From an uncultured bacterium (GTDB taxonomy: Bacteria; Omnitrophota; Omnitrophia; Omnitrophales; Abzuiibacteriaceae): DNA of 64,000 bases. The stretch is from NCBI GenBank assembly GCA_964387845.1, contig CAYLXA010000005.1, forward strand, positions 128,001 to 192,000. The letters are read 5' to 3'. Both the position numbers and the translations under genes were made by a program. The notes under the pieces were generated by a model. It did no database searches and was not told where the DNA came from. It worked only from the letters and a program-made list of their open reading frames with translations. How positions within the stretch are numbered: position 1 is the first letter of the stretch; every line of letters starts with the position of its first letter. Positions 5,627 through 64,000 of the stretch are shown here, piece after piece.

Positions 5627-5744
5627 ATCATGATATAATTCCTATCGCGACGGCGCCCACATTGACCGCCGCGTGATGGCACTTGCGCCAGCGTTACCGC
5701 AGGTGCCTGCGAACGAAGTGACGCAGAATAAAGCGCAAGTGTCT

Positions 5745-6092: not shown

Positions 6093-6099
6093 AGATTAA

Positions 6100-6876: not shown

Positions 6877-7301
6877 CATTTGTATTTCAAACGACAAGTC
6901 AACGCTCCGAGTTAATGAAAAAGATTAAAGGAGTTAACACTAAGCCAGAAATTGCTTTTGCAAAGAAACTTGAATTATACAAAGTCAAGTTTAGAAAACA
7001 TTTTAAAAAACTCCCTGGAGTACCGGATTTTGCTATTTTGAGAGGTAGAGTAGCGGTGTTTATCGATGGGGAGTTTTGGCATGGATACAATTGGGTTAAT
7101 AAAAAGAAAAGGATAAGATCCAACCGACAATACTGGATTAAAAAAATAGAAAGAAATATACTAAGAGATTCGATAAATATGAGAGAATTAAAGAAAATAG
7201 GTTGGTATCCTTTAAGATTTTGGCAGCATGAAGTTGTTGCTGAGGGTGATAAATGTATAAAGAAAATCGAAAAAATAATGCAGCGACGAAGTTCAAAATA
7301 G
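6873..7301 (+). CDS. vsr: very-short-patch-repair endonuclease Vsr
   Basis: TSQRSELM...TKPE...FIDGEFWHG... conserved Vsr core. Confidence 0.8.
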   Translation: MTFVFQTTSQRSELMKKIKGVNTKPEIAFAKKLELYKVKFRKHFKKLPGVPDFAILRGRVAVFIDGEFWHGYNWVNKKKRIRSNRQYWIKKIERNILRDSINMRELKKIGWYPLRFWQHEVVAEGDKCIKKIEKIMQRRSSK

Positions 7302-8383: not shown

Positions 8384-8424
8384 ACCGTAAACTGGACACC
8401 GTCCGGCAGAAAAAAGGTTGTTGA

Positions 8425-9540: not shown

Positions 9541-9729
9541 CAAATCGAGGATCTTATCATGATTAAATCAAGAAAATTGAAGGCTGATCTAACCCAGTTA
9601 TTAAATTATCTTTGGCATGACGAGAGAAAACATTATTTGGAGCGGCGAAACAAGAATCATATTTATTTAACAATTCGCAGATTGGCAAAAGAAATTAGTT
9701 ATAAGCCGTAAATCGAACGCGTCTCGACG

Positions 9730-9840
9730 ATGTGCGGAAGATATTCATTAACCCTCGATAAAAAGAAACTCCTCGCGGAATTCGCGCCCGAGCCCCGCGC
9801 CCACAAATTTCTTGATTTCCATTATAGGGGTAAGGATTAA
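9730..9840 (+). pseudogene. 5' fragment of a SRAP (YedK/HMCES, DUF159) gene: MCGRYSLTLDKKKLLAEFAPEPRAHKFLDFH then out-of-family tail and stop
   Basis: MCGR N-terminus with catalytic Cys2 is the SRAP hallmark; only ~31 family-like codons. Confidence 0.55.
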
Positions 9841-9862
9841 GGGGTAAGTCGTAAGTTTTAAG
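9827..9862. repeat. heptamer half-element GGGGTAA GGATTAA GGGGTAA GTCGTAA GTTTTAA, inverted partner of 3648-3667
   Basis: 7-nt periodicity; reverse complement of 3648-3667 motif. Confidence 0.5.
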
Positions 9863-9936
9863 TAGAATTATGCTGATAGTCATACCCCATCCCTCCTAAA
9901 CATTCCCCTTGAACATGTTGTAGTTATGTACTACAA

Positions 9937-10533
9937 TTGTTGTACATCATGACAACAAGTTTAATCTTTCAGCTCCAGCAAACCAAGTCGCCGCTCAGGA
10001 AGAAGCTTTTATCGTACTTCTTCACGAATCCCGGGGCGAAGCTCTATCTCAGAGATATCGCGCTCAAACTCCATGTCGATCCCGCGAATCTTTCGCGCGA
10101 GCTCAAGCGGCTCACCGATGAAAGTGTTTTTGTTGCCCAGAAGCAGGGTAATCTCAAATATTTCTCTTTGAATCCAAAGCACGCCTTATATGAAGAATTT
10201 AAGTCCATGATTTTTAAGACCATCGGCGCTCAAGGCGCGATTGAAAACCTGTTAAGTAAAATCCCGGGAATTAAACGCGCTTTTATTTATGGTTCGTTTG
10301 CCAAAAATACGGAGCGTGCGGATTCCGATATCGACCTTTGTATGATCATCCAAAAAAAAGAATTCAAAGAAAATCCTTTCCTTGAGGGAATTCATAAACT
10401 CGAAGGTGAACTTGGCAGGGAAATCAATTATACTTTCTTTACCGACGAAGAATGGCAGTCCAAGCAGCGATCTAAAGATAGCTTTGTCACCGGAATTCTT
10501 AAGAATAAAAAAATCGATCTCATGCATATATGA
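9937..10533 (+). CDS. minimal nucleotidyltransferase (MNT) with N-terminal winged-HTH, antitoxin-like partner of HEPN
   Basis: AFIYGSFAKNTERADSDIDLCMI NTase motif; wHTH N-terminus; ATGA overlap with next gene. Confidence 0.75.
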   Translation: MLYIMTTSLIFQLQQTKSPLRKKLLSYFFTNPGAKLYLRDIALKLHVDPANLSRELKRLTDESVFVAQKQGNLKYFSLNPKHALYEEFKSMIFKTIGAQGAIENLLSKIPGIKRAFIYGSFAKNTERADSDIDLCMIIQKKEFKENPFLEGIHKLEGELGREINYTFFTDEEWQSKQRSKDSFVTGILKNKKIDLMHI

Positions 10534-10994
10534 AAAAAATTGATCTTCAAGATTTAATTCAAGAAGGGCAGCTTCAAGAAGAGCCAGGTATCGGCTGGGA
10601 CCAGGTGGAGCGTTTAATTAAACGGGCATTTGAAGATTTGAAATCAGCCGACCGGAACATGTCCTTTGATGAGCCGGGCGCGATGGATTTTATCTATAAG
10701 GCGATGTTTCATGCTGGGAACGCTTTGATTCGTTCATATGGGTTTAGGCCGGGCGCTACCAGACAGCATCAAGGTGTGATTACGGCAGTTGGGCGGATCT
10801 TGGGCGTTGAATCAAAGGCGCTGATTCTGAAATTTGATAAACTCAGGAAACGCCGCAATGAGTTTGAATATCAGGGCATTTTTGCGATGGGAAGAGAAGA
10901 GTTGAAAGATTCCATCGAACAAGCCAAACAATTGGTTGGCGTGATACGAAAAGCACTCGAAGATTCTCATCCACAAAAGCAGTTTAAATGGTAA
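10530..10994 (+). CDS. HEPN-domain protein (putative toxin of MNT-HEPN pair)
   Basis: 154 aa helical protein with KRRNEFEY R-x4-6-H-like motif; genetic coupling to MNT. Confidence 0.55.
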   Translation: MKKIDLQDLIQEGQLQEEPGIGWDQVERLIKRAFEDLKSADRNMSFDEPGAMDFIYKAMFHAGNALIRSYGFRPGATRQHQGVITAVGRILGVESKALILKFDKLRKRRNEFEYQGIFAMGREELKDSIEQAKQLVGVIRKALEDSHPQKQFKW

Positions 10995-11024
10995 GCGAAG
11001 ACCATAAAGACGGCGCCGGGCACC

Positions 11025-11107
11025 TGCTACTCATTAACACTCGATAAAAAGAAGCTCCTCGCGGAATTCGCGACGAACCCCGCGCCCACAAATTTCTTGA
11101 TCTCCAT
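11025..11107 (+). pseudogene. second SRAP 5' fragment (CYSLTLDKKKLLAEFATNPAPTNFLISI), start codon lost
   Basis: ~77-bp direct repeat of 9745-9823 at ~90% identity. Confidence 0.5.
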
Positions 11108-11315
11108 CAAAGTTATATATACTATTCACCATAGTAAATAAGCATTAACCCCCTCCTCGCTCAAAGTATTAAATTCTCCAAGCTTCCTCCACATAAAGTC
11201 TCTTTTTTCACTTGCGCTTTATGCGCAAGTACCATCTCTCGAGGCTCAAAGTTAGCCTCGTATTGCTAGGCCGCGTAAACTATGGTTGACACTGTGTAGC
11301 ATATAGGGTACACTT

Positions 11316-11645
11316 ATGATGACTTGGAAAATTTTGCATTACCGGAGGCGCGACGGAAGGATTCCTTTCCAAGAATGGTTTTCCGAATTTTACGATGCTC
11401 GGGTTTGCGCTAGAATTCAATCACGGATTCACAGGTTAGAGCGTGGTAACTTTGGAGATTCAAAGAGCGTAGGTGATGGGCTCTTCGAGTTACGATTTCA
11501 CTTTGGGCCCGGCTATCGCATTTATTATGGAATTCGTCACGGCCGGATTGTTATTTTGCTTTGCGGGGGCGACAAAAGTAGTCAGCAAAAAGATATTCAA
11601 ATAGCAAACGTATATTGGCAGGATTATTTGGAGAGTCAACTATGA
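11316..11645 (+). CDS. RelE/ParE-superfamily addiction-module killer protein (HigB-like, Gp49 family)
   Basis: GDGLFELRFHFGPGYRIYYG...ILLCGGDKSSQQKDI signature. Confidence 0.75.
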   Translation: MMTWKILHYRRRDGRIPFQEWFSEFYDARVCARIQSRIHRLERGNFGDSKSVGDGLFELRFHFGPGYRIYYGIRHGRIVILLCGGDKSSQQKDIQIANVYWQDYLESQL

Positions 11646-11953
11646 GACGATATAAACCGTATGTAGATCATCAGGAATGGTTGTTGAAATCATTAAAGGA
11701 TCCTGAGATGGCTTCTGAATATCTAAATGCCGTGCTAGAAGAGGGTGATAAGCAATTATTTTTGATGGCACTCAAAAATGTGGTGGACGCGCAAGGTGGG
11801 ATGACAAAGATGTCGGATAAATCTAAAATCAATCGTGTGAGCCTTTACAAAATGCTCTCAAAGAACGGAAACCCCGGCTTTGAAAATATTTTGAGATTAC
11901 TTCAAATTGCCGGCATTCGTTTTCGGGTGACACCGCAATCTCGTAGGAAATAA
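11642..11953 (+). CDS. addiction-module antidote protein (HigA-like HTH)
   Basis: FLMALKNVVDAQGGMTKMSDKSKINRVSLYKMLSKNGNPGFENILRLLQIAGIRF matches antidote family; start at ATG 11642 overlapping toxin stop. Confidence 0.7.
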   Translation: MRRYKPYVDHQEWLLKSLKDPEMASEYLNAVLEEGDKQLFLMALKNVVDAQGGMTKMSDKSKINRVSLYKMLSKNGNPGFENILRLLQIAGIRFRVTPQSRRK

Positions 11954-12154
11954 TTGCTGCACACTCACGCTTGATGCGTGAGTGCTAAATCCGTAGAGAA
12001 ACCACAAGTTTCTCACGGATAATACTTGCACATAGGTGCAAGTGCATCCGCGCGGCGTGGTTGACAATCCACACCTAATTCTGTATGATACTTCATCGGT
12101 GCACGAAGTATTGAATTACAGATGTAAAACCCACCGATTAGTTCAATTAATCCA

Positions 12155-12280
12155 AGTAAAAATTCAAAATCTAAATATCAAAATTCAAAACAATTATTAA
12201 ATTCCAAATTCAAAACGTTTTGAAATTTAATATTTGTAATTTGAATTTGTTTTATGTTTTGATATTTGAATTTTGAAATT
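12155..12280. repeat. long AT-rich imperfect palindrome (CAAAAT/ATTTTG-rich arms centred on CAAAACGTTTTG) immediately upstream of guaB-like RBS
   Basis: read directly; ~60-nt arms. Confidence 0.55.
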
Positions 12281-12297
12281 ATATTTGAGGAGCAAAA

Positions 12298-13458
12298 ATG
12301 AGCGAGTGGATCGGACGAGATAGAAAAGCAAGGCGTGCATACGGTTTTGATGAAATTGCGTTGTCCCCCGGAAATCTGACCATTAATCCCGACGAAGTTG
12401 ACATCAGTTTTTATATCGATAAAAAGAAATTCGAAATTCCGTTTATTGCCTCCGCGATGGACGGTGTGGTGGATCCTAAGTTCGCGGTCGCGATGGGCAA
12501 AATGGGCGGCCTCGCGGTGCTTAATCTCGAAGGCATCTACACCCGCTACGACAATTATCAAGAAATCTTAGACGATATTGCCAAAGCCACGCCTGAAAAA
12601 GCCACTGAGCTGGTTCAGAAACTCTACGTGGAACCGGTCAAAGAAAAACTAATCTCAAAACGCATTCAGGAAATCAAGAAAGCCAAAGTACCTGCCGCTG
12701 TGAGTTCCATTCCGCAAAAAGCGGAGAAGTACGGCAAAATCGCCGAAGAAGCCGGCTGTGATGTGTTTGTGGTTCAATCGACCGTCACCACGGTTCGCCA
12801 CATCGCGAAAGCGTACAAAACCCTCGAATTCGAAAAGTTCTGCAAAGCGATGAAGATTCCCGTCATTCTCGGAAATTCCGTGACGTATCAAGTGGCGGTT
12901 GAACTCATGACGGCCGGCGCGGACGGACTCTTAGTCGGCATCGGTCCGGGATCGGCTTGCACGACCCGCGGCGTGTTGGGCCTCGGTGTTCCGCAGGTGA
13001 CCGCGATTTGTGATTCCGCAGCCGCGCGCGAATTTTATTACAAAAAGTCAGGACGCTACGTTCCGATCATCGCAGACGGCGGTATGTCCACGGGCGGCGA
13101 TATTTGCAAAGCATTCGCTTGCGGATCTGATGCCGTGATGGTGGGTTCCGCTTTTGCCCGCGCCAAGGAAGCGCCGGGGAAGGGATTCCATTGGGGCATG
13201 GCCACACCGCACGCCAATTTGCCGCGCGGCACACGCATTCGCGTCGGCACGACGGGAACTTTGCAGGAAATTATGTTCGGCCCCGCGAAATTGGATGACG
13301 GCACGCAAAATTTAGTCGGCGCACTTAAAACCTGCATGGGCAACATCGGCGCCCGCACGGTCAAGGAAATGCAAATGGCCGAAATCGTGATTGCGCCTGC
13401 GATTAAAACGGAAGGAAAGCTCTTTCAAGCGGCTCAAAAAGTTGGAATGATGAAATAA
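12298..13458 (+). CDS. IMP dehydrogenase/GMP reductase-family protein lacking CBS subdomain (GuaB-like)
   Basis: catalytic loop [20 protein letters not shown]; 386 aa, no CBS pair. Confidence 0.8.
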
Positions 13459-13468
13459 CTTAATATTC

Positions 13469-13543
13469 GGGCTTCATGCTGCATGCTACAAGTTACAAGC
13501 TGCAGGTTTGAAGCTTGGAGCCTGAAGCCTGTAGCTTTGAAAC
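13469..13543. repeat. heptamer-periodic palindromic element (CATGCTG CATGCTA CAAGTTA CAAGCTG / TTTGAAG CTTGGAG CCTGAAG CCTGTAG), family A
   Basis: read directly. Confidence 0.6.
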
Positions 13544-13544
13544 T

Positions 13545-15101
13545 ATGAACCAAGACGTCTGTTTAATTCTCGATTTTGGCTCGCAATACACCCAATTGAT
13601 TGCACGCCGCGTCCGCGAGAAAAAAGTTTTTTCGGCCATTCATCCTTACCACATTCCGTTCAGTAAAATCCTGGAAATCAATCCCAAAGCCATTATCCTC
13701 TCCGGTTCGCCGTCCAATGTCTACGCCAAACACGCACCGATTTCGGATAAACGGATTTTCTCACTCGGTGTTCCGATCCTGGGGATTTGTTACGGCCTGC
13801 AGCTCACCGCGCACGTCCTTAAAGGGCGCGTCAAGAAAGTTAAGCACCGCGAATATGGTTACGCCGATCTCGTGATCAACAAGCCGGGTGAATTGTTTGC
13901 GGGGCTTCCCAAAAAGTTTCACTGCTGGATGAGCCACGGCGATCAAGTCACCAAACTTCCGCAAGGATTTGAACGGCTCGCGCACACACGAACTTCAAGT
14001 GTCGCGAGTTTTGGAAACACAAAAGCCAAAATTTACGGCGTTCAGTTTCACCCGGAAGTCGTTCACACGCCGCTCGGCCACAAAATCATCGCGAACTTCC
14101 TATTCAAAGTCGCAAAATTCCGCGGCAATTGGTCGCCCAAGTCATTTATTAATGAAACCATCAAAGATATCCGCCGCAAAGTCGGAAAGGACAAAGTCGT
14201 TCTCGGGCTTTCGGGCGGCGTGGATTCATCCGTGGCCGGTGTGTTGATTCACAAAGCGATCAAGCATCAGCTGACCTGTATTTTCGTGGACAACGGTTTG
14301 CTCAGAAGAGGCGAGCGACGGCAAGTCGAAGAAGAATTCCGGAAACATTTTCATATGAACCTGCGTGTGATCGATGCGACGAATGAATTTCTGAATGCGC
14401 TGCGCGGCGTGACGGACCCCGAGAAAAAACGCAAAATCATCGGCGGACTCTTCATCAAGGTTTTCGAAAGGGAAGCCAAAAAACTCGGTAAAGTGAAGTT
14501 TCTGGCGCAAGGCACGCTTTATCCCGATGTGGTGGAATCGGTTTCGGCTCATGGCGGCCCGACGGCCGTGATCAAATCACATCACAACGTGGGTGGTCTT
14601 CCGAAGCGGATGAAATTTCAATTGCTCGAGCCCTTGCGTGATTTATTCAAAGACGAAGTCCGCGCGGTCGGCAGAACGCTTGGCATTAAATCGCAGTTTG
14701 TGGATCGCCACCCGTTTCCGGGCCCGGGTCTTGCGGTCAGGATTCTAGGCGAAATCACGCGCGAGCGGCTTTATTTGGTGCGCGAAGCCAATTGGATCAT
14801 GCTCGAAGAATTGATGAAGAATAAAGACAAAAACGGCAGATATTACGACCAGGTTTGGCAGGCCTTTGCAGTTTTGCTGCCGGTTAAAAGTGTCGGCGTT
14901 ATGGGCGATGAGAGAACGTATCAATACGTGACTTCTTTACGCGCGGTGGTCTCGGAAGACGGCATGACGGCCGACTGGGCGCGGCTTCCGGATTGGCTCC
15001 TCGCCAAGATTTCAAGCCGCATCATAAATGAGGTGAACGGCATCAACCGCGTGTGCTACGATATCAGCTCGAAGCCGCCCGCTACCATCGAATGGGAATA
15101 A
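13545..15101 (+). CDS. guaA: glutamine-hydrolysing GMP synthase
   Basis: GATase LILDFGSQYTQLIARRVRE, ATP-PPase SGGVDSSV. Confidence 0.9.
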   Translation: MNQDVCLILDFGSQYTQLIARRVREKKVFSAIHPYHIPFSKILEINPKAIILSGSPSNVYAKHAPISDKRIFSLGVPILGICYGLQLTAHVLKGRVKKVKHREYGYADLVINKPGELFAGLPKKFHCWMSHGDQVTKLPQGFERLAHTRTSSVASFGNTKAKIYGVQFHPEVVHTPLGHKIIANFLFKVAKFRGNWSPKSFINETIKDIRRKVGKDKVVLGLSGGVDSSVAGVLIHKAIKHQLTCIFVDNGLLRRGERRQVEEEFRKHFHMNLRVIDATNEFLNALRGVTDPEKKRKIIGGLFIKVFEREAKKLGKVKFLAQGTLYPDVVESVSAHGGPTAVIKSHHNVGGLPKRMKFQLLEPLRDLFKDEVRAVGRTLGIKSQFVDRHPFPGPGLAVRILGEITRERLYLVREANWIMLEELMKNKDKNGRYYDQVWQAFAVLLPVKSVGVMGDERTYQYVTSLRAVVSEDGMTADWARLPDWLLAKISSRIINEVNGINRVCYDISSKPPATIEWE

Positions 15102-27662: not shown

Positions 27663-29381
27663 ATGAGCAAGATCACAAGCCGCGGCGTCGGAGTCGGTTT
27701 AAGAAAAGAGCACTACCCATCGATTCTTGAAAAATGGCCGCCCATGGATTGGTTTGAGGCCATTTCCGAGAATTACATGGATACGGGCGGCCGGCCGCTT
27801 GCTGCTTTGGAAAAAGTTCGTGCGCATTATCCCGTCGCGCTTCACGGTACTTCGATGTCGCTTGGCTCTACCGATCCTTTCCATCCCGATTATTTGCCCC
27901 GTCTGAAAAAATTAATCGATCGCATCGATCCTTTTATTGTTTCGGACCACCTTTGCTGGTCCGGCGTCGACAAAAACCACCTTTACGACTTACTGCCGCT
28001 TCCGTTTACCGAAGAGGCCATCCGGCACTTGGTTTCGCGCATTCAGCAGGTCCAGGAATATTTGGGGCGCTCCATCCTGATTGAAAATGTTTCGACTTAC
28101 ATCACTTTCAAGAACTCCGAAATCAGCGAATGGGAATTTATTTCCGAAATTTCAAAGCGTTCAGGATGCGGCATTCTGCTTGATCTCAACAACATTTATG
28201 TCAATTCCGTTAATCACCATTTTGACCCTTTCGACTATATTCAAAACATTCCAACCGAAGCCGTCGGTCAGTTTCATTTGGCGGGGCACACGGATATGGG
28301 AAAATATTTATTTGATACACACAGCGGTGCCGTGATTGACCGGGTTTGGGATCTGTACCGGAAAGCACTTGAGCGATTCGGACAAGTTTCAACCTTAATC
28401 GAGTGGGACGCCGAAATCCCGAGTTTCGAGAAGTTATCCGAAGAAGCCGCGAAAGCGCGGAATGTTTACAAAGAGTTTCCAGCCGTTGTTGCGAGGCATG
28501 AACCAAGCGGCGCCGAAGCAATCTCTGAATCGCAGATTGCTTCGACATCAACTTTGGAAACATCTCGCAATGACCGCAAAATTTTACTTTCCGAAATTCA
28601 AAAAAAATTCAGGCCCCGAATCCAGCCAAAGCGCCAGGCATTTGATCCTGCCGGCGAAGTTTTGAATCCCCAGGGCGGCGATCCGGGCGAAGTGCGCCTT
28701 GATGTTTACTCAAACGGTTATGTTGCGAGGTTCCAGGAGTCGCTCTCAGAAGTGTTCGAAGCTGTACACGCAGTCTTGGGCGATAGCGCATTCTATGATT
28801 TGGCGAGCGAATACACATTTCATTATCCGTCGATGCATTACAATTTAAATTTAGTCGGCTGTCATTTTCCGGATTTTTTAAAAACGCACCCGCTTTCAAA
28901 AAAAGTTCCTTTTTTGGCTGATTTGGCGCAGCTCGAGTGGCAAATTTCAGCGGCTTTTCATGCCTACGATATCGAGCCGATCAATCCGGCGCAGCTTGCG
29001 TCGATTCCGGCGGAGGAGTGGGAAGATCTGAGGGTGACTTTTCAGCCGTCGGTTTCGCTGCTTTCGTCGACATGGCCCGTGCTCGATATTTGGCTGAAAC
29101 GGCATGAGCGCGCAGAGCGAGTCAATATCGACTTAGAAAACAGGCCTCAACATGTATTAATCGGGCGCCGCGAACTTCAAGTCCGGTGCGAATTTTTGGA
29201 TTCACTCCAGTTTCACTTAATCAAAGGACTTTTAAACGGCCAAACGCTGGGCGAGGTATGCGGTGAGTTGGCGGATTTGGTTGAGGATGAAACCGAAATT
29301 CCCATAACCGATTGGTTTCAGCGCTGGGTCCGGGATCAAATGATTGTTCGCTGCGAATCTGCACGTCAAGCATCTTTGTAA
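27663..29381 (+). CDS. fused MNIO (DUF692/MbnB-like TIM-barrel) - DUF2063 partner-domain protein
   Basis: N-terminal ~290 aa matches DUF692 (ISENYMDTGG, HLCWSG, metal-ligand-rich GQFHLAGH); C-terminal ~280 aa DUF2063-like; directly downstream of Cys-rich precursor. Confidence 0.75.
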   Translation: MSKITSRGVGVGLRKEHYPSILEKWPPMDWFEAISENYMDTGGRPLAALEKVRAHYPVALHGTSMSLGSTDPFHPDYLPRLKKLIDRIDPFIVSDHLCWSGVDKNHLYDLLPLPFTEEAIRHLVSRIQQVQEYLGRSILIENVSTYITFKNSEISEWEFISEISKRSGCGILLDLNNIYVNSVNHHFDPFDYIQNIPTEAVGQFHLAGHTDMGKYLFDTHSGAVIDRVWDLYRKALERFGQVSTLIEWDAEIPSFEKLSEEAAKARNVYKEFPAVVARHEPSGAEAISESQIASTSTLETSRNDRKILLSEIQKKFRPRIQPKRQAFDPAGEVLNPQGGDPGEVRLDVYSNGYVARFQESLSEVFEAVHAVLGDSAFYDLASEYTFHYPSMHYNLNLVGCHFPDFLKTHPLSKKVPFLADLAQLEWQISAAFHAYDIEPINPAQLASIPAEEWEDLRVTFQPSVSLLSSTWPVLDIWLKRHERAERVNIDLENRPQHVLIGRRELQVRCEFLDSLQFHLIKGLLNGQTLGEVCGELADLVEDETEIPITDWFQRWVRDQMIVRCESARQASL

Positions 29382-29517
29382 GTTATTTTACCATAATAGT
29401 TTATATAAATTCCATTGGTCGCCCATTGACGGCACTGTTTTTACTGGTTATTATTATCAGGTCAGTTTCGGAATCAATCTTTGATTCAATTCGAGCGAGT
29501 TTATCAGGAGGAAAAAG

Positions 29518-29817
29518 ATGAAAAAGTTTTTTGCAGTGTTTGCAGTTTTGTTTTTGGCGGTTTTTGTGTTTTCAAGCCCGGCACTTCTTATTGCCGAGGA
29601 AGCAGCTCAACCGGCAGCTCCGGAAGAGCCTGTTGTTGAGCCTGCTGTAGCCGAACCCGCGGATGCATTGGTGGATGAAATGGATTCGGAAGAGTATTTT
29701 GATGAAGCCAAGGTTCTTCGTGATGCAGCGGCAAAGCTGAAAGGAATGGCGGGCGATGCGGAAGCTCAAAAGTTAGCCGGCCAGCTCGAAGAATTAGCGT
29801 CTGATTACGAATATTAA
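29518..29817 (+). CDS. small secreted acidic protein, hypothetical
   Basis: signal peptide MKKFFAVFAVLFLAVFVFSSPALLIA; Glu/Ala/Pro-rich. Confidence 0.4.
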   Translation: MKKFFAVFAVLFLAVFVFSSPALLIAEEAAQPAAPEEPVVEPAVAEPADALVDEMDSEEYFDEAKVLRDAAAKLKGMAGDAEAQKLAGQLEELASDYEY

Positions 29818-29887
29818 TCGATTGTAGTTTGTTCACCAAAAAGGCCAGCAGCTGAACACTGCTGGCCTTTTTTTCTCAGGGAAGTTC

Positions 29888-32026
29888 ATGCCGTCTCACT
29901 CACAAAAGTCTCCCAATCATCTGATCCGGGAAAAAAGTCCCTATCTTTTGCAGCACGCCTATAATCCGGTCCATTGGTATCCGTGGGGCGGGGAAGCTTT
30001 TCAAAAATCCAAACTCGAAGACAAGCCCATCTTTCTTTCGATCGGATACTCAACCTGCCACTGGTGCCACGTAATGGAAGAAGAATCTTTCGAGAATCAA
30101 GCGGTCGCGGATATCCTGAACGAATATTTTGTATCGATCAAAGTGGACCGGGAAGAGCGGCCGGACGTGGACGGTATTTATATGAAAGCTGTCATGGCCA
30201 TGACCGGCTCAGGCGGTTGGCCGATGAGTGTTTTTCTGACACCGGATTTAGAACCTTTTTACGGCGGCACATATTTTCCGCCGGAAAGCCGCTACGGGCG
30301 TCCGGGATTCCTTACCATCTTGAATGCGATTGCGGATAAATGGAAAACCGAGAAAGGTTCTATGACAAGCGCCGGCAAAGAATTAGCCGGAGCGCTTCGG
30401 GCCGATTCGGAAAACGAGCCCGGTCAAAAAGCCGCATTGGATCAAAAGCTGCTTTCGGTTGCTTTTCATCAATTGGAATCCCAATATGACGGAGCCTTGG
30501 GCGGATTCGGCGGAGCACCGAAATTTCCGCGAAGCCACGTTATGTCTTACTTGTTCCGGTTTTGGAAACGCTCAGGGGAATCCGTGGCACTTGATATGTC
30601 GCTTCAAACGCTGCGTGAAATGGCGAAGGGCGGCATGTATGACCATGTGGGCGGCGGATTTCACCGATACTCCACCGATGCCAAATGGCACATCCCGCAT
30701 TTCGAAAAAATGCTTTACGACCAGGCGCTGATCGCCAAAACCTATCTCGAAGCATATCAGGCCACGCATGAGGAAAACTTTGCAAATGTAGCAGGGGAAA
30801 TATTTAATTATGTGCTCCATGATATGAAAGCCCCCGAGGGGGCATTCTATTCTGCCGAAGATGCCGATAGCTTGCCGGAGAAAGACTCAGCCAAAAAAAC
30901 AGAAGGCGCATTTTATATTTGGAGCGAGAAAGAAATTTTGGCGCTCTTGGGTGAAAAAAACGGAAAGTTTTTTAATTTCATCTTTGGTGTTGAACCGGAC
31001 GGCAATGCCGAAACCGATCCTCATGGTGAGTTTACCGGAAAGAATATTTTGTACTTAGCGCATTCGATTGATGAAGCGGCAAAAAATTTTAATAAAACCG
31101 AAGAAGAAATCAAAAAAATCGTCCGAGAATCAAAAACCATCTTACTAAAAGCGCGCGCAGAACGCCCAAAACCGCATCTGGATGACAAAATTTTGGCCGA
31201 CTGGAACGGCTTGATGATTTCAGCGCTCGCATCGGGTTCGCTCATTCTTCGAAATCCGTGCTATGCGGAGGTTGCTTGCAAAGCCGCCGATTTCATTATG
31301 GAGAAAATGACGATTCACGGGAAACTCATGCACCGTTACCGCGACGGAGAAGTGGCAATCGAAGGATTTCTGGATGATTATGCGTTTTTCTCGAACGCGC
31401 TTTTGGATCTTTATGAGGCGACTTTTCAGGTGCGGTATTTGAGTGAAGCGGCTCGGTTGGTTGAAAGAATGAATGCGCTTTTTTGGGATGGAAAAAGCGG
31501 AGGCTACTTTTTCTCAAGCTCTGGCGGCGAAAAATTGATTGCTCGAAGTAAGGAAATTTATGATGGCGCGATTCCTTCGGGGAATTCCGTAGCGGCAATG
31601 GTATTGGTTCGGCTTAACCGGATGACGGCAAAATCCGAATACGAAAAGCGTGCCGGTGAATTATTCGACGCGTTTTCTGTTCAGCTTGCGCAGTTTCCGG
31701 CCGGATATCCGCAGATGATGATGGCGTTTGATTTTTCGCAAGGCCCCTCGCGCGAAATCGTGATCGCGGGCAATCAAAAAGCCGAAGAGGTCCGGAAAAT
31801 AGCCGATATAATATTCAGCACATTTTCGCCGAACCAAGTAGTTCTGTTTCATCCTCAGGACGGAAGTGAGGCAGAAGCGGTTGAGCAGTTGGCACCGTTC
31901 GTGAAGAGCCAAGGACTTGTGAGCGGCAAACCGGCGGTTTATATTTGTGAGAATTACACATGTTCGCTTCCTGTGACGGATGTGTCAGATTTAAAAAAGA
32001 AATTGGGAGTTAGTGGAAATGCCTGA
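29888..32026 (+). CDS. thioredoxin-domain protein of the DUF255/YyaL family (N-terminal Trx-like CxxC + six-hairpin glycosidase-like domain)
   Basis: [20 protein letters not shown] motif, 712 aa. Confidence 0.8.
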
Positions 32027-33218
32027 AAGTTTTCTTGAAATCCTAAGTATTTATCTGCTTGGGCTTGGACTCAATCTGACGCCCTGCGTGTATCCCATGC
32101 TATCGATTACTGTTTCTCTATTTGGACGGCAAACGGGCGGGCACCATCATCACTCAGCTTTGAAGGCAATTGTCTATGTGCTTGGGATGGCAGCCATGTA
32201 CAGTGCGCTTGGCGTGACAGCAGCACTGACGGGCGGATTTTTCGGTTCATTTCTGCAAAATACTTATATCTTGCTAGCGATCGGTGCCGTTTTGGTGGCG
32301 CTTGCGCTCAGCATGTTCGGCTTTTATCAAATTAATGCACCCTCCTGGATTCTGCAGAGAATCGGCGCTCCCAAACACGTGGGGCTCATCGGCATTTTTT
32401 TCTCTGGGCTGATGGTGGGTATTATCGCCGCGCCTTGCGTGGGGCCGCCCGTCATCGCACTCTTGGCGATTGTGGGTTCGCGTGGCGAACCGCTTTATGG
32501 ATTCCTCGTATTCTTTGTTCTATCCATCGGGCTCGGAACACCCTATTTAATATTGGGAACATTCTCCGAGCTGCTCCGAAAAATCCCAAAATCAGGGGTT
32601 TGGCTTATTTGGATGGAACGTTTTTTTGGTGTCGTACTTCTTGCGATGGCGGCGTATTATTTCTTAATTGCACTAAATCCTACGCTTCTCAAATGGCTTC
32701 CGACCGCGGCACTTGTGCTGGGCGGTATTTATCTCGGATTTCTAGAAACATCGGGAAATCAAAAAATAAAATTCAATCGCTTTAAGAAAACAGTAGGTGT
32801 TATTGCAGTCGTTGTTGGTTTGGCACTTCCTTTTACAGGGCCGAAGCAAAATGTGGTTTGGGAAGCGTATTCAGCTGAAAAGATAGAAACCGCGAAAGCC
32901 GCGGGGCAGCCTGTTATCTTTGATTTCTATGCCGATTGGTGCATTCCTTGTCATGAGCTGGACCGGTTTACTTATTCAGACCCCGAAGTTATCAAAGCGC
33001 TCGATCATTTTCTCCGCATCAAAGTTGATTTGACTGACACGGATACACCTGAAGCCGAAGAGCTGACGGATAAGTACGAGATTGTCGGCGTCCCCACCAT
33101 CGTTTTCCTGGATAAGCAGGGAAATGAAGTCGAGGAGGCCCGCACAAACGGCTTCATTGATGCCCAGGAAATGCTCGAAATCCTGAATTCGCCTTCTTTT
33201 GTAGAACCAACTTCCTAA
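32013..33218 (+). CDS. DsbD/CcdA-family thiol:disulfide transporter with C-terminal thioredoxin domain
   Basis: 8 TM CcdA-like core with conserved Cys + C-terminal [12 protein letters not shown] thioredoxin motif. Confidence 0.75.
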
Positions 33219-33988: not shown

Positions 33989-35932
33989 ATGTCCATTACG
34001 CAATCAACCACGGCCAAACTCCGAATTATTAGTTTCGAAAGCCGTCTGTCCTCAACCATGACAGAGCTGATCCACAAAGCCGGCCATGCGCCTATCGCGG
34101 CGCCGGCACTGCAGGAAATCCCGCTCGAGAAAAATCCCGAAGCGTTTCAATTAGGGGAGCGGCTCCTCAATCACGAAATTGATTTCATGATCTTTCTAAC
34201 GGGTGTCGGCACAAAAGCGCTCTTTGAAACCTTGAGAACCCGTTACAACATGAAACAAATCATTGCGGCCTTGAATCAAACCATCATTGTTGCGCGAGGC
34301 CCGAAGCCGGTTCAGGTTTTGCAAGATTACGGAATCATGGTTTCGGTCCTGGTGCCGGAGCCCAATACCTGGCGCGACATTTTGGAAGTTTTAGACTCAG
34401 ACGAGCATAGCATTTCTCTGATGAAAAGGACTGTCGCGGTCCAAGAATACGGAGAGGAAAATCCGCAGCTCATCGCCGGATTGGTGGAGCGCGGCGCGCG
34501 CGTAATCCGGGTTCCCGTCTACCGGTGGGCGCTGCCGGATGATACCAAGCCGCTAAAAAATGCGATTCGGACCATCATCGAACACAACGCGGACGCGGTG
34601 CTCTTCACAAACTCGGTGCAGGTCAATCATTTATTTCGGCTGGCCTCGGAAATAGGCCTTGAAAGGCATTTAAAACAGGCCTTTGCCAAAATGGTGATCG
34701 CTTCCGTCGGCCCTCATTGTTCTCAAGCGATTGTTGAGCATGGGCTTTCCGTTGATATCCAGCCCGAGACGCCGAACATGGAGTCGCTCGTCTTGGAAGT
34801 GTCAAAACGCGCGAAGGCCATTTGGGATGAGAAGCAATTACATGAAAGCAAACTCATGGATTCCGGCATCCGAATGGAATCAGAAAGAGTCCAAAAAAAG
34901 GAATTGGTGGAAAGCGTATTTTTAAAAGCGTGCCGGCTTGAAAAAACATCTCACACACCGGTTTGGCTGATGCGCCAAGCAGGGCGCTACATGAAAGAAT
35001 ACCGGCAGCTGCGTGAAAAAATGCCCTTTCTGGAACTTTGCAAAAACCCATCACTGTGTGCAGAGGTTACAATTCATGCCCAGGAAACCATCGGAGCGGA
35101 CGCTGCTATTATTTTTTCGGATATCCTGCTTTTGGTACAGCCGTTTGGCCTGGGCCTTGAGTATTCGCGGGAAGACGGGCCCGTGATTGACAATGTTATT
35201 CACCGCGGATCGCGCATCGATGAACTTCCCGAGATCGAACCGGCCGATTCGCTCGGATTTGTATATGAAGCGATCCGAAAAACGCGCGAGAATCTGCAGT
35301 CCAACATTCCGCTGATCGGGTTTGCCGGAGCACCGTTTACGCTGGCGTCTTACATGATTGAAGGCGGCTCATCAAAAGATTTTAGGCGCACAAAGCTATT
35401 CATGTATTCCGATGAAGGCCAGTGGCGCGCACTGATGGAAAAATTGGCACGCGCCGTATCGAAACATCTCAAGGCGCAAATTGAGGCCGGTGCTCAGGCG
35501 GTTCAGCTTTTTGACAGCTGGGTCGGTTGTTTAGGCCCCGGCGATTATAAAAAATATGTACAGCCGTACTCCAAACAGGTATTTGATTCGCTAGAAGGGC
35601 TCGCGCCGACCATTCACTTTGGAACCAACACCGGAAATTTGTTGGAGCTCATGAAAGAGGCGGGCGGTGATGTAATCGGCGTCGATTTTCGGATCACGTT
35701 GGACCAGGCTTGGCGAAGAGTGGGATATTCAAAAGCAGTGCAAGGAAATTTGGATCCGCTGGTGCTGCAGTCATCGATTCCTTATATTAATCAGCGTGCA
35801 CAGGAAATTATCAAGCAGGCCTCCGGACGCCCAGGGCACATTTTCAATTTGGGCCACGGTGTTTTGCCGGATACGCCTGTTGAAAATGTGATCGCGTTGG
35901 TGGATATGGTCCACGAACTCAGTGGTAAGTGA
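33989..35932 (+). CDS. hemE: bifunctional uroporphyrinogen-III synthase (HemD) / uroporphyrinogen decarboxylase (HemE) fusion
   Basis: N-terminal ~250 aa HemD-like; C-terminal HemE with VWLMRQAGRYMKEYR...IIFSDIL; stop codon lies inside heptamer repeat. Confidence 0.85.
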   Translation: MSITQSTTAKLRIISFESRLSSTMTELIHKAGHAPIAAPALQEIPLEKNPEAFQLGERLLNHEIDFMIFLTGVGTKALFETLRTRYNMKQIIAALNQTIIVARGPKPVQVLQDYGIMVSVLVPEPNTWRDILEVLDSDEHSISLMKRTVAVQEYGEENPQLIAGLVERGARVIRVPVYRWALPDDTKPLKNAIRTIIEHNADAVLFTNSVQVNHLFRLASEIGLERHLKQAFAKMVIASVGPHCSQAIVEHGLSVDIQPETPNMESLVLEVSKRAKAIWDEKQLHESKLMDSGIRMESERVQKKELVESVFLKACRLEKTSHTPVWLMRQAGRYMKEYRQLREKMPFLELCKNPSLCAEVTIHAQETIGADAAIIFSDILLLVQPFGLGLEYSREDGPVIDNVIHRGSRIDELPEIEPADSLGFVYEAIRKTRENLQSNIPLIGFAGAPFTLASYMIEGGSSKDFRRTKLFMYSDEGQWRALMEKLARAVSKHLKAQIEAGAQAVQLFDSWVGCLGPGDYKKYVQPYSKQVFDSLEGLAPTIHFGTNTGNLLELMKEAGGDVIGVDFRITLDQAWRRVGYSKAVQGNLDPLVLQSSIPYINQRAQEIIKQASGRPGHIFNLGHGVLPDTPVENVIALVDMVHELSGK

Positions 35933-47689: not shown

Positions 47690-48125
47690 AAGGCTTTTCT
47701 CGGTAGATGATCGCCTGCTGCATTTTGCAGTGGGAGGAAAGTCCGAACTTCACAGGGCAAGGCGCCCCGTAATACGGGGTGGGGCGGGAGCAAATCCCGC
47801 TTTAAGGAAAGTGCCACAGAGATTATACATCCGAAGTGGTAAGTGATAAGTGGTAGGTGGTAAATAGTAAATAAAGGAGTTATTGGCTTCTCATCAACTT
47901 AGCACTTACAACTTATCACTTACTACTGGATAAAGGTGAAACGGTGGCGTAAGAGACCACCGTGTATCGGCGTAAGCTGGTATGCAAGGTAAACCCCGCC
48001 TGAAGAAAGATGAAGATCGCGCAAGTTGACTTGTTCAGCTCAGGGCGGCCCGTTCTGCGCGCGTCTAACAAGATCGAATGACCCGAGGTTGCAAAATCCG
48101 GGCTAGACAGATGATCATCGCTTCT
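47690..48125 (+). ncRNA. rnpB: RNase P RNA (bacterial type A) with heptamer-repeat hairpin in P12 position
   Basis: P4 GGAGGAAAGUCCG; GGUGAAACGGUGGCGUAAGAGACCACC; AAUCCGGGCUAGACAG 3' P4 strand; boundaries approximate. Confidence 0.8.
47836..47928. repeat. family D heptamer hairpin (GTGGTAA GTGATAA GTGGTAG GTGGTAA ... CTTACAA CTTATCA CTTACTA) inside rnpB
   Basis: read directly. Confidence 0.65.
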
Positions 48126-48127
48126 TC

Positions 48128-48212
48128 AGTTGTAAGTGATAAGTGATAAGTGGTAAGTTGTAAGTTTTAAGAATTCATAAACTTATCACTTAAAACTTAC
48201 CACTTACAACTG
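48128..48212. repeat. family D heptamer hairpin immediately 3' of rnpB
   Basis: GTTGTAA GTGATAA GTGATAA GTGGTAA GTTGTAA ... rc arm. Confidence 0.65.
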
Positions 48213-48259
48213 GGGAAGAAACAGAATTCGGCTTATGCCGAGAAAAGCCTCTCTTTTTT

Positions 48260-60139: not shown

Positions 60140-60302
60140 GTGGTTGTTACTTCTCGCCTTAGTAACTAGAACTTTTTAGTTCTATTTACTACTTATTATA
60201 CTAGTTTTAAATCCGTTTATCTTGTAATCTGATTATTTTTAGGATATACTTTTAGCTCGGGAATACCCGAAAAATTTCCGGCGAAAGGATTTCCTTTAAA
60301 TA

Positions 60303-63300
60303 GTGAGGCCCTACTCTTTTTTTCTGCGCGCCATCTCCGCGCTCCTGATTTTTACTTTCTCTTTCACTGAAACCATCGCACGCGCTGACGCAGCTCAGAC
60401 ATCGTCGCAGTTAGCGGCGATGCTAGAGCAGTCATCAAACCGGATGGGTTTGATGGCCGAAACTATTTCTAGTTTTACGCGCAATAGTTATCTCGCCATC
60501 GAAAAATTCGCCAACTCCGTCGATGTCCGTTCCGAACTGCGTTCTCGAGGACTTGAATTATCTGGCGGTCATAAACCCATACCCCAAAGTGATACTAAAG
60601 AGGTAAATAATAATGACAAATCAGAGGCAGGGCATGAGCAGTCAGAAAAAGAAATTCAGAGTTACGCTAAAAAATTAAAGGAATCAAAAGGTGATTTAAA
60701 GATTATTCGAGAGGCGATTGTTAATTTTCACCGCTTGGGCTATAGCGAAGTGAAAGTCGCAGAAATGATTAACCAAGTCAATCAAAATCAACCTTATGCA
60801 CAAATTCAATATTGGTCGGATGAAGTCACCCAATCTACGTTAATCAAACGCTTTTCACAGCATCGAAAATTAATTAAATCTCTCCTTTGGCTTTTACTCC
60901 CGGTTGTTTGTTATTTTTTACCTTATCCAGGCGCGACTGCTTTACTTCTCTTGATTTATCACGACGCAATGCACCGGTATCAAGCCGGCTTTTACTTTCT
61001 GACTTATTTTCTGGGTGATTTTTGGAATAATCGAATGGAAGATATTCAAAATTTTCTGGTCAAGAAGTATCACGAGCCCGATTTTAATTTTGAGGGTGAT
61101 TTGTGGCTAAATCCGGTAGACCGGGCGCATGACCAATTATTCGAAGCCAAAAGGCAATTTTGGAAAAGCGTCCTTGAAAGCATGAGCGGAGTTTATATGG
61201 TCAGCTCGATCCTGGTTTTCCCATGGCTATTTTCAGCCCTGAGAATGCTGATATCAGCCCCCATGGTTCTTGTTCAAACAGGCGTTTTTTCGTTCTTGGG
61301 CGCAATATCGATTGGTTTCTTCGGGCTAGTTCCTTTACGCGGGCCCCACTTTCAAGTTACGGCGGCAGATTTGGGCTTGGAGCATGCCGTCGATGTTGAA
61401 AGAACGTCCGTGACAGGTCTCCGGTGGCCTCAATTTTCAAACAAGCAGAATGCAATGATTGAAGCTGCCCGTTTTTACTGGAATAGAAATCCGATGGTCC
61501 TGTATGTTGAGAAGAACCGCGAATCGAAGTTTGAATGGAATAGGCAAATCCGCCGCGACACTGCAAGCCGTCTTTTAGCCCGCCATTTTTTAACGGTCGT
61601 TTTGTTTGTTACGACTGCCTTAAGCACCATTTTATTGATTGCTATCAGCATTATTCTTGGCTCAGGCGTTATAGGCGCGGTTGAGTTTGTTATTCAAAAA
61701 TTCGGCCAGAGTTTTATAACGAATGTGTTGCTGATCGTGGGTTCTTGCTGCTTTTTTCCGCTTGTGGCCGTTATCATCATCAGCGCGATAGTTGTCGGAA
61801 GCGAACAAAGCATTGCTGGAGCATGGCAAAAAGCCCGGGCAGATATTAAAAGCTTGAAGAAAAACGTTTTCCTTAATCCGAATCAGTCTGATGAAAAATT
61901 TTGGAAAAATTTAATTAAGCAACTAAAGCGGATCAGTAAAGAAGAGGCGCCCTTTAGCGATATTAGTTTCCCTGAGTCGATTGAGCGGTTGATCCGTGAT
62001 TTGTCATCTCTCAAAGAGGATCATTCGGAATTAATTCCGCTGCATGAGGCTCTCGCTACAGGCAAGGAGGGCACCGAATATCAAATCAAAGGGCAGGCGG
62101 CTCTGACTTCTGATCGACATTCGGATGATCCTTCAACGAAAGTCAGGGCAGAACTCAGGACGACGAATGAACGGCTGATTTGGAAGGCAATTGCTCAATT
62201 TGGAATTCCGGAGTTTTATCAAGAGCAAGCCTATTTGTTTCTAAGCGGCTTGCTGGAAATTAATCAGAGTCAGTGGGGAACACCTTTCGAAGACGCAATC
62301 AGTAGACTTTCTCAAGTACAAGTTGAACAAATTAAATCTTCCATTTCTTTCGAACCCATTGTCATGTCCACTACTTCTTTGGTTAGACGCACGGTTCGTT
62401 TTTCGGTTTATATGGCCGGTGTTATCGTTTTGGCGTATGCCGCCGGGGCTGCTTTGGCACGAGACATCAATTTGTTTAAACTTTTCAGCCAGATCGGAAA
62501 ACAAAAACTTCCGGGGCCGGAGCAGATCGACATAGGGTTCGCGGCCATATTTTTATTCACAATGTTTATCGGATTACCGTTTGTGATTACGCGTTTTCAA
62601 AGGTGGCTTGACGCCAAAATAAAACCTTATCCCATTTCTTACGATCTCAGGCGCACAATCTTAAATGAATTGTTCGTCAAGCAAGGCCTCATGTCAACGG
62701 ATGATGCGGAAGAATTGACCCGAAGAAAATATCGATCGGAATTGCGGACGGAGTGGGCAGATCAAATTAAGAGTTTGCTTTTAAAAGATTTTCCGTTCTT
62801 GGAACTCGATTTTTCTGAAAATGGTTACCTGTTTCGCGCTATCAGAAGTGGTTTGCGTGATGGATTGTCAAGAGGATCGTTCTCTTACCTAAATGACGGA
62901 GGCGTTGCGGCCGGTTGGCAAGAAAAGCATCTTGTCTATTTTGTTTCCGAAGATCCAAATGATGCCCTTGATGTTGCTGAATTTCAAAACGGATTTCCGG
63001 ATAACGCAGTCGTTATTTTCCCGAGCAAATTATTTCACGATGAAATGAATGCAGGCCGTGCTGCCATCATGACCACCCATGGGCTTTCCGGGACGTTGAC
63101 GGGTATCAAATGGCCTCTCATGACGAACCCGGTTACGATTCAAGATTCTGCTTTTATTATTGTTACTCCTGAAACCAAACAATATTTGGACAATCTGCTG
63201 GTCAATGGTCAGGCAAGCGGCGAAGAAGAAAAATTAAGACTCCGGCTTTTGGAATATCAGAAGCAGGGGATTTATCAAAAAATTGTTGCCTTGAATTTTG

Positions 63301-64000
63301 AACCAAAAGGCATGGCAGCGGATGCGATTCAAGAGAAGTTTAAGGCATTTTTATTGAGCAAAAGCATTCAGCCGGCGCAAGCGATTGATTCTGAAATATA
63401 TCCAAACTTGGCCGAAATTCAAAGTGATGGCGTAAACAAAAGGCGCTCCGAGCTGCGGTCCAGGGAATTTGTTAAATTTAGCGAGCTTGGATCTGCAATC
63501 GCTGACTATATTGATCTTTTTCGCAAGAGAAACGGAAGGTTTAGTCCATCGGTTTTAAGAGCGGTTGCTGATCTTGATTTCGGAACCGAGCGGCAATTTG
63601 TTAATGTAGCGTCTGTGCCGTTGAGAAACGGTTTCGTACCCGATCCTCAAGCTTTTGGCAGGGCCGTTGTTGAGGGGATCGTAAGAGAACTTCCGTTTGA
63701 AGTACGGCCCATCGAAAAGTTCAGTTTTGCGTATAAAAAGCATGCGTTCAGAATTCGCATGGAAACGGGGAATCAGCAGACGCAGAATAAAGAAGCACAT
63801 TCGGAGTTGAGGGCAAGGAAAGTTAGAAATGATACGAGCGAGACCAAGTTACACCCTAGAGCCGATCGTTTCCATTCATTACGTTCTCTCAAGCGATTTT
63901 TCTTAGGCCTACTGATAATTGGCTTAGCTGCGAGCATGTTTATTTGGACACACGATCATGACCGATTATCTCTGGATCCCTCATTCATAAAGGTGGCCGT
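60303..64000 (+). CDS. giant hypothetical secreted/polytopic membrane protein, partial (>1,230 aa, continues past window end)
   Basis: manual translation in frame 0 mod 3 from GTG 60303 shows no stop to 64000; N-terminal signal peptide VRPYSFFLRAISALLIFTFSFTETIARA; at least 5 hydrophobic TM clusters; absent from ORF track (no stop in window). Confidence 0.6.
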   Translation, partial: MRPYSFFLRAISALLIFTFSFTETIARADAAQTSSQLAAMLEQSSNRMGLMAETISSFTRNSYLAIEKFANSVDVRSELRSRGLELSGGHKPIPQSDTKEVNNNDKSEAGHEQSEKEIQSYAKKLKESKGDLKIIREAIVNFHRLGYSEVKVAEMINQVNQNQPYAQIQYWSDEVTQSTLIKRFSQHRKLIKSLLWLLLPVVCYFLPYPGATALLLLIYHDAMHRYQAGFYFLTYFLGDFWNNRMEDIQNFLVKKYHEPDFNFEGDLWLNPVDRAHDQLFEAKRQFWKSVLESMSGVYMVSSILVFPWLFSALRMLISAPMVLVQTGVFSFLGAISIGFFGLVPLRGPHFQVTAADLGLEHAVDVERTSVTGLRWPQFSNKQNAMIEAARFYWNRNPMVLYVEKNRESKFEWNRQIRRDTASRLLARHFLTVVLFVTTALSTILLIAISIILGSGVIGAVEFVIQKFGQSFITNVLLIVGSCCFFPLVAVIIISAIVVGSEQSIAGAWQKARADIKSLKKNVFLNPNQSDEKFWKNLIKQLKRISKEEAPFSDISFPESIERLIRDLSSLKEDHSELIPLHEALATGKEGTEYQIKGQAALTSDRHSDDPSTKVRAELRTTNERLIWKAIAQFGIPEFYQEQAYLFLSGLLEINQSQWGTPFEDAISRLSQVQVEQIKSSISFEPIVMSTTSLVRRTVRFSVYMAGVIVLAYAAGAALARDINLFKLFSQIGKQKLPGPEQIDIGFAAIFLFTMFIGLPFVITRFQRWLDAKIKPYPISYDLRRTILNELFVKQGLMSTDDAEELTRRKYRSELRTEWADQIKSLLLKDFPFLELDFSENGYLFRAIRSGLRDGLSRGSFSYLNDGGVAAGWQEKHLVYFVSEDPNDALDVAEFQNGFPDNAVVIFPSKLFHDEMNAGRAAIMTTHGLSGTLTGIKWPLMTNPVTIQDSAFIIVTPETKQYLDNLLVNGQASGEEEKLRLRLLEYQKQGIYQKIVALNFEPKGMAADAIQEKFKAFLLSKSIQPAQAIDSEIYPNLAEIQSDGVNKRRSELRSREFVKFSELGSAIADYIDLFRKRNGRFSPSVLRAVADLDFGTERQFVNVASVPLRNGFVPDPQAFGRAVVEGIVRELPFEVRPIEKFSFAYKKHAFRIRMETGNQQTQNKEAHSELRARKVRNDTSETKLHPRADRFHSLRSLKRFFLGLLIIGLAASMFIWTHDHDRLSLDPSFIKVA

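Follow-up and report, generated by a model that had tools for sequence, protein, structure and literature searches.

The stretch of DNA under study, hereafter called the window, comprises 64,000 nt (positions 128,001-192,000 of the forward strand of contig CAYLXA010000005.1, assembly GCA_964387845.1) from an uncultured bacterium of the Omnitrophota (Omnitrophia; Omnitrophales; Abzuiibacteriaceae). Towards its 3' end, the genes pyrC, carA, carB, pyrK, pyrD, and pyrF are followed by a long open reading frame (ORF), which starts at position 60303 of the forward strand and runs out of the window; on a longer contig carrying the same sequence (L081), it is followed by yicC, gmk, rpoZ, coaC, and coaB. 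The complete gene encodes a protein of 3,388 amino acids (aa) that is a modular string, and a strict pentapeptide, [RKH][SA]ELR (referred to as RSELR in the following), marks the junctions between its modules. This architecture is stated here with high confidence; the role of the pentapeptide is weighed further below, where cleavage of an exported chain is the explanation that we favour.

An initial annotation of the window had described the interval from 60303 to 64000 (+ strand) as a frame free of stops, and upon translation it indeed yielded 1,232 codons with 0 stops. The remaining five frames over the same interval contained 54-88 stops each (approximately 1 stop per 14-23 codons). An in-frame TAA (60297-60299) precedes GTG 60303, which is the first start codon afterwards, and a Shine-Dalgarno-like and a promoter-like sequence are located upstream of it (Table 1). 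The spacer between pyrF and the ORF has a length of 163 nt, contains two short hairpins after the pyrF stop as read from the sequence, and shares ~77% DNA identity with the corresponding spacer of a related locus (L082, introduced below). For extension of the contig, L081 (Logan assembly of SRR15237813) was used, which is 100% identical to the window across 13,698 nt. The stop was located on this contig, giving a gene of 10,167 nt and explaining, as the initial annotation had supposed, why the frame was missing from the list of ORFs. An exhaustive HMMER search additionally retrieved a 100% identical protein of 3,338 aa, called from an internal ATG on an NCBI contig (204,954 bp); its cluster also includes the 3,388-aa version encoded on L081 (P0076). 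The two independent assemblies are identical in sequence, with the frame open throughout, which makes internal stops in a reassembly unlikely. GTG 60303 was accepted as the start because the first 50 residues, which are left out of the 3,338-aa call, are conserved in two other long proteins (P0028 and P0056). An exact 50-mer from the window end had no match in the genome-contig or metagenome-contig collections.

In agreement with the initial annotation, the region is richer in AT than the pyr genes (G+C of 0.43-0.44 vs. 0.47-0.50), and the G+C content at third codon positions (GC3) of the long ORF was 0.44 vs. 0.51-0.60 in 13 core genes. Of the six frames, the claimed one had the best codon log-odds score (0.095), all others being negative. 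The codon-usage check thereby singled out this frame, although both its score and its GC3 remained below those of the core genes, which scored 0.24-0.47. Three short ORFs on the minus strand (61357-61566, 62241-62504, and 63555-63800) had been regarded as antisense artefacts; they encode 69-87 aa, lie inside the long ORF, and have negative coding scores, which corroborates this assessment. An alternative genetic code or a fusion of decayed genes was rejected, as ordinary stop codons terminate the adjacent genes and no codon is common to the copies of the motif. That the ORF is a real gene is considered practically certain.

Pentapeptide and module boundaries

No motif had been recognised in the product at first, yet the pentapeptide recurs five times in the part encoded in the window (Table 1) and 14 times in the full protein, and it is absent from all other frames and ORFs of the 64-kb window. 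It also recurs in P0056 (5,181 aa, 15 copies), P0028 (2,996 aa, 7 copies), P0005 (1,015 aa, 4 copies), and P0003 (12 copies), the latter being a fragment of >4,822 aa that fills an entire contig of the Omnitrophota metagenome-assembled genome GCA_016930235.1. SELR was the most over-represented 4-mer in each of these five long proteins (observed vs. expected, 12 vs. 0.12 in P0076, 14 vs. 0.16 in P0056, and 10 vs. 0.20 in P0003). The rate amounted to 2-3.8 per 1,000 aa in four of the long proteins and to 1.0 in P0005. As background, Omnitrophota proteins totalling 146,000 aa, almost exclusively DnaE homologues, had a rate of 0.007 per 1,000 aa, and ORFs of 80 other loci, totalling 860,000 aa, one of ~0.01. 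The motif is consequently enriched ~300-500x over background. At its C-terminus, where the contig (L085) ends, P0003 carries four RSEQR variants, two of them within a tandem "SSRSEQRQV" repeat, which hints at a related second motif.

Conservation is confined to the five residues; the sequences on either side vary and exceed the average polarity of the protein. Across 21 sites in two genes, serine is encoded by TCN and AGY, arginine by CGN and AGR, leucine by CTN and TTR, and glutamate by both of its codons; because all synonymous codon families are used, selection acts on the peptide and not on the DNA or RNA. A role at the DNA or RNA level (recombination core, internal ribosome-binding site, or recoding signal) was rejected, given this codon diversity and the lack of a start codon after the motif. 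Resemblance to Tat, PEXEL, and RxLR signals was rejected on spacing. An R-x-x-L specificity like that of Site-1 protease may be a lead to the type of enzyme. Literature searches with RSELR and SELR gave no relevant match.

The motif is not general to giant genes. On a groundwater metagenome contig (L086, positions 1-14400), P0002 (2,799 aa), which carries a module resembling an ADP-ribosyltransferase (ART), starts 10 nt after a gene for a protein of 11,437 aa; P0002 lacks SELR, and the last 1,996 aa of its neighbour contain neither SELR nor an over-represented 4-mer.

Four complete modules (M1-M4) and the beginning of a fifth (M5) are encoded in the window (Table 1). No internal repeats were found by BLASTP in the full protein, and searches of Pfam, NCBIfam, PDB sequences, and PADLOC with the window fragment and the modules yielded only the enoyl-CoA hydratase (ECH) domain and two weak matches. 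The former is a strong crotonase/ECH domain of P0076 in Pfam; the weak ones are a nucleotidyltransferase signature in M5, which has three further hydrophobic helices beyond the window, and a YraN-like nuclease (UPF0102) signature in M8, a PD-(D/E)xK-like region. Relatives of M1 (in part), M2, and M4 were none or very few. Residues 124-396 of M1 are homologous to P0030, a protein bearing a signal peptide, and M2 and M3 jointly align to P0018. Domains in the other long proteins were distributed accordingly among the motifs: six Pfam domains were found in P0003 (formyltransferase, FabD-type acyltransferase, CheR and other methyltransferases among these), five in P0056 (methyltransferases, an M23 peptidase, and PCMT among these), and a MutS domain V lies between motifs in P0028. 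Every Pfam domain found sits within a single inter-motif interval, and a permutation test placed 1 of the 52 motifs inside a domain envelope vs. 8.0 expected (P=0.0016).

The best defined boundaries are those of M3. Its homologues comprise ~65 stand-alone proteins of 200-260 aa as well as internal modules of other long proteins, and the stand-alone homologues cover exactly the interval between motifs 3 and 4. Structure prediction of this soluble segment (aa 816-1048) with AlphaFold2 and an alignment of homologues resulted in a confident ART-like model (predicted local distance difference test (pLDDT) 88.7, predicted template modelling score 0.86), in which both flanking motifs fall into low-confidence tails. 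According to this model, M3 shares the ART fold, i.e., a split beta-sheet NAD-binding core, with the DarT/KptA(Tpt1)/DUF952 branch of the superfamily; the scores were modest, at 6-14% sequence identity, and M3 had no match in Pfam, NCBIfam, or PADLOC. With regard to a catalytic triad (R-S-E or H-Y-E type), the M3 family conserves an arginine (LFRG) and an AEPG segment. The copy in the window keeps the arginine and has GLSG in place of AEPG, and its activity is doubtful because the glutamate of AEPG is missing. On another contig (L084, 2-954), the gene of a stand-alone ART-like protein (P0009, 247 aa) and the 70-aa ORF in front of it have 4 nt in common, a two-gene layout reminiscent of DarTG-type toxin-antitoxin pairs.

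Table 1 Features of the long gene within the window
Feature	Residues (aa)	Position in the window	Strand	Remarks
Promoter-like site TTGTAA-17-TATACT		60222..60250	+	consensus scan; weak evidence
Shine-Dalgarno-like AAAGGA		60284..60289	+	13 nt before GTG; read from sequence
5' 1,232 codons of the 3,388-codon gene		60303..64000	+	full gene at L081 10001-20167
Predicted Sec signal peptide	1-28	60303..60386	+	R2, R9; h-region AISALLIFTFSF; A-R-A before D29
Motif 1, RSELR	76-80	60528..60542	+	position conserved in P0028 as KSELR
M1	81-614	60543..62144	+	soluble head, then hydrophobic hairpins (aa 189-219, 299-346, 427-507)
Motif 2, RAELR	615-619	62145..62159	+	motif scan
M2	620-810	62160..62732	+	one hydrophobic helix pair (aa 700-720, 741-766)
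Motif 3, RSELR	811-815	62733..62747	+	in low-confidence N-terminal tail of the M3 model
M3	816-1047	62748..63443	+	soluble; predicted ART-superfamily fold
Motif 4, RSELR	1048-1052	63444..63458	+	in low-confidence C-terminal tail of the M3 model
M4	1053-1165	63459..63797	+	soluble; no relatives detected
Motif 5, HSELR	1166-1170	63798..63812	+	motif scan
M5, start	full module 1171-1903	63813..64000	+	first hydrophobic helix aa 1195-1217 (63885-63953)

Conserved ends and exchanged interior

Gene order is maintained in a related genome (L082, a 439-kb contig of JGI 3300028648), in which the flanking proteins are 75-92% identical. Its slot between pyrF and yicC is occupied by the gene of the 2,996-aa protein P0028, which shares with the window protein only aa 1-88 (~55% identity) and the last ~200 aa (49%), the interiors being unrelated. 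At the DNA level, homology between the two loci is lost 156 nt into the gene and returns at yicC, and the long gene has a lower GC3 than its neighbours in both genomes. Cargo between conserved ends turns over quickly between related genomes, the ends being kept and the chromosomal slot fixed.

The N-terminus shows the succession of n-, h-, and c-regions typical of a Sec signal peptide and is conserved in P0028 and P0056, which bears out the cleavable-looking signal peptide noted initially; from its sequence features, cleavage is predicted before D29. At the other end, both proteins terminate in ...[SA]ELRxRMAxLIAA (L081 20128-20164, L082 18952-18988). The RMA(A/T)LIAA tails are non-polar and resemble the LAA end of the SsrA degradation tag, a tag that is recognised by ClpXP and Tsp. 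Structure prediction of the C-terminal domain from the two sequences gave no usable model (pLDDT 45.8).

Clusters of transmembrane helices with soluble regions between them had also been proposed, and hydropathy analysis recovered five hydrophobic clusters in the window part: the three segments in M1, one spanning aa 700-766 in M2, and that of M5 (aa 1195-1217). The full protein has ten such clusters by a heuristic hydropathy prediction that counts aa 427-507 as one merged span. Describing the product as a polytopic membrane protein consequently fits the copy in the window but fails for the family, as P0028 has no hydrophobic segment beyond the signal peptide. Since this syntenic counterpart is hydrophobic only there, the membrane hairpins are exchangeable cargo and not part of the core design.

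Interpretation of the pentapeptide

Omnitrophota are known for very long multi-enzyme proteins with a signal peptide or transmembrane helices (architectural class 1 in 10.64898/2026.06.07.730766), and post-translational cleavage of such proteins has been suspected before (10.1101/2023.11.21.568195; 10.64898/2026.06.07.730766). West-Roberts et al. 2023 had no information on cleavage points, so the long proteins could not be split (10.1101/2023.11.21.568195). The protein studied here shares with them the phylum, a signal peptide plus hydrophobic helices, and mostly unique sequence, and it shares with class 1 many distinct enzyme domains of which none dominates by copy number. It differs from class 1 in its length, since 3,388 aa misses the catalogue threshold of >=10,000 aa (relatives 2,996, 5,181, and >4,822 aa), and in its position between housekeeping genes instead of beside genes for secretion or pili, glycoside hydrolases, or transposases. 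SELR, a junction motif, linkers, and the exchange of cargo between conserved ends at a syntenic position are unmentioned in West-Roberts 2023 and Nielsen & Lui 2026.

The 3,388-aa product opens with a conserved Sec-type signal peptide and closes with a domain of ~150-200 aa that is likewise conserved. In between, unrelated and independently folding modules (membrane hairpins, ART-like, nucleotidyltransferase-like, crotonase-fold, and PD-(D/E)xK-like units) are strung together, each junction presenting [R/K]-S/A-E-L-R in a polar flexible linker. In the mechanism proposed here, the whole chain would be exported, presumably via Sec, and a sequence-specific endopeptidase would cut it at the RSELR sites, so that the gene product would be a polyprotein. 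The modules thus released would act as separate proteins, possibly as effectors or as enzymes for the host- or prey-dependent lifestyle attributed to the phylum. Overall, a secreted, polyprotein-like cargo string cut at RSELR is regarded as the best explanation at a probability of about 0.45, i.e., just short of even odds, and RSELR as a cleavage site is held with the same reserve. The wider proposition is more tentative, namely that a subset of the long genes of Omnitrophota encodes true bacterial polyproteins whose conserved ends drive export of interchangeable enzyme or effector cassettes and in which a dedicated endopeptidase cuts every [R/K]SELR. Cleavage is favoured because the motif is strict and short and occurs in exposed linkers, where it bounds units that are found elsewhere as separate proteins, and because copies closely follow the signal-peptide region and also lie ~12 residues before the C-terminus.

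Several observations weigh against cleavage of an exported chain. No protease domain was detected in the full protein (by Pfam, including searches with the modules) or among the other ORFs of the window. Several modules are enzymes using cytoplasmic cofactors (coenzyme A, NAD, S-adenosylmethionine, ATP), a poor fit to simple periplasmic release, and the topology according to the positive-inside rule was ambiguous. The motif copies at aa 3267 and 3328 lie inside the C-terminal stretch shared with P0028 and are not conserved there; hence, at least some copies must be dispensable as junctions. P0002 with the 11,437-aa protein encoded upstream of it, P0018, and P0041 are long proteins that likewise contain the M3 module and have no SELR motif. 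As long proteins with M3 do not all have SELR, the motif marks a subset only. The SELR-bearing family is moreover rare, with five proteins seen, and a metagenome scan with the N-terminal alignment recovered only the already known relative.

Three other explanations were weighed against these data. If the long chain remained uncut, RSELR could be a repeated linear recognition motif, either docking a partner, chaperone, or secretion adaptor or mediating self-association, by which the enzyme modules would be arranged on the membrane. Docking motifs are likewise short, strict, solvent-exposed, and repeated, and such a scaffold would agree with the lack of a protease in the protein or nearby, with the motif copies inside the conserved C-terminal region, and with the published treatment of Omnitrophota multi-enzyme long proteins as membrane-anchored assemblies. 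The motifs, however, precisely delimit units that elsewhere occur as separate proteins, the placement of copies near the two chain ends, as given above, is more typical of processing than of docking, and no repeated candidate receptor domain was seen; an uncut scaffold is therefore deemed rather unlikely. The pentapeptide might also have been inherited with each cassette as a by-product of module capture, with no post-translational role. Wholesale exchange of cargo between related genomes speaks for such a passive linker, and so does the fact that only some long proteins have the motif, as would be expected from assembly within a particular lineage. The five residues are nevertheless invariant while all synonymous codon families are used and the flanks are unconserved, indicating purifying selection on the peptide; moreover, at the DNA level the sites offer no shared sequence to a recombinase or to homologous exchange, and the motif is kept in proteins with unrelated modules, all of which makes passive inheritance improbable.

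The remaining alternative, according to which the frame is no gene but a chance open frame, an assembly chimera, or a series of decayed genes fused by stop loss, could draw on a GC3 and codon score under the level of the core genes and on the lack of detectable relatives for most of the sequence. It is at odds with 3,388 stop-free codons present identically in two assemblies, with one module of confident fold and a strong crotonase domain, and with a peptide motif kept through synonymous change in a protein whose two ends are conserved in a related genome; its likelihood is negligible, and it is effectively refuted already.

Cleavage at RSELR, as preferred here, can be compared with three known systems. 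MARTX toxins of Vibrio and relatives are described in PMC4453568, PMC6315884, and PMC2900308 as having conserved ends, a strain-variable central array of effectors, and cleavage in the linkers between domains. The long protein shares the conserved ends and the variable central array, a likeness confined to function. In place of a type 1 secretion signal it has a Sec signal peptide, and rtxBDE-like or other type 1 secretion genes are absent from its neighbourhood; Pfam searches detected no MARTX-type C80 cysteine protease in the protein or its modules (E up to 1) and no RTX or glycine-rich repeat families in the long protein. MARTX linkers are not known to carry a strict pentapeptide. In the P97/P102 adhesins of Mycoplasma hyopneumoniae, motif-directed endoproteolysis has been shown experimentally (PMC3322551, PMC4772806). 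The likeness is that a short motif in exposed linkers sets the cut sites; motif and organisms are unrelated, and the cleavage proposed here would be its counterpart by inference. Polyproteins in general share with the long protein a recurrent short motif between independently folding units. Those of viruses are cut by 3C-type proteases and encode their own protease, and their cleavage has been shown experimentally; no protease of its own is recognisable in the long protein, and like the Mycoplasma adhesins they serve as an analogy only.

Genomic setting and implications

The locus is chromosomal DNA of an uncultivated Omnitrophota bacterium. A scan of genome contigs with PyrF did not place the organism, the matches listed being ~50% identical and spread over many phyla; DnaE did. 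All named relatives of the DnaE encoded in the window at 62-77% identity belong to Candidatus Omnitrophica/Omnitrophota, and the window further contains LptF/G, a class A RNase P RNA, and further core genes. The match to the RNase P RNA (47695-48250, + strand; 183.6 bits) extends over 556 nt vs. a model of 367 positions, and the RNA therefore contains ~190 nt of insertions. A single protein of 647 aa (33989-35932, + strand) consists of HemD (uroporphyrinogen-III synthase) fused to HemE (uroporphyrinogen decarboxylase). Downstream of the long gene, CoaC (flavoprotein) and CoaB (DFP) are encoded by two separate adjacent genes (L081 21995-23273, L082 20848-22142); a fused coaBC is the usual bacterial form. 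At 27663-29381 (+ strand), a 572-aa fusion of an MbnB/TglH/ChrH (DUF692) domain, a modification enzyme of ribosomally synthesised and post-translationally modified peptides, with DUF2063 is encoded. Next come genes for a DsbH-like thioredoxin-fold protein (29888-32026) and a DsbD-type membrane protein (32013-33218), and 27663-33218 may represent a peptide-modification locus. The first 11 kb of the window look like a defence or mobile island, with a HipA_C kinase, DUF5131, a C5 cytosine DNA methyltransferase, several ORFs lacking a Pfam match, and an overlapping nucleotidyltransferase-HEPN pair (9937-10533 and 10530-10994), all within 1451-10994 (+ strand).

The kind of protein described here is already known, as it belongs to the long modular proteins of Omnitrophota. 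The RSELR punctuation under selection at the peptide level and the design of conserved ends and exchanged cargo at a syntenic housekeeping slot appear to be undescribed. Omnitrophota encode the longest predicted proteins in biology, and whether these chains act whole or cut is the question addressed. The junction motif makes processing testable in at least one subfamily by predicting fragment ends for metaproteomes; it also provides a rule for splitting the proteins in structure prediction and a handle on the protease by co-occurrence. The pattern of conserved ends and exchanged cargo at a housekeeping locus points to an effector platform of cassette type in a phylum that is uncultivated and host-dependent. 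Should the motif be only a linker signature, it would still be a useful marker of a new subfamily of modular long proteins. If the long protein is indeed a polyprotein, one gene would stand in for an operon or an arsenal of effectors, and RSELR would supply the cleavage points that the literature on giant genes calls unknown.

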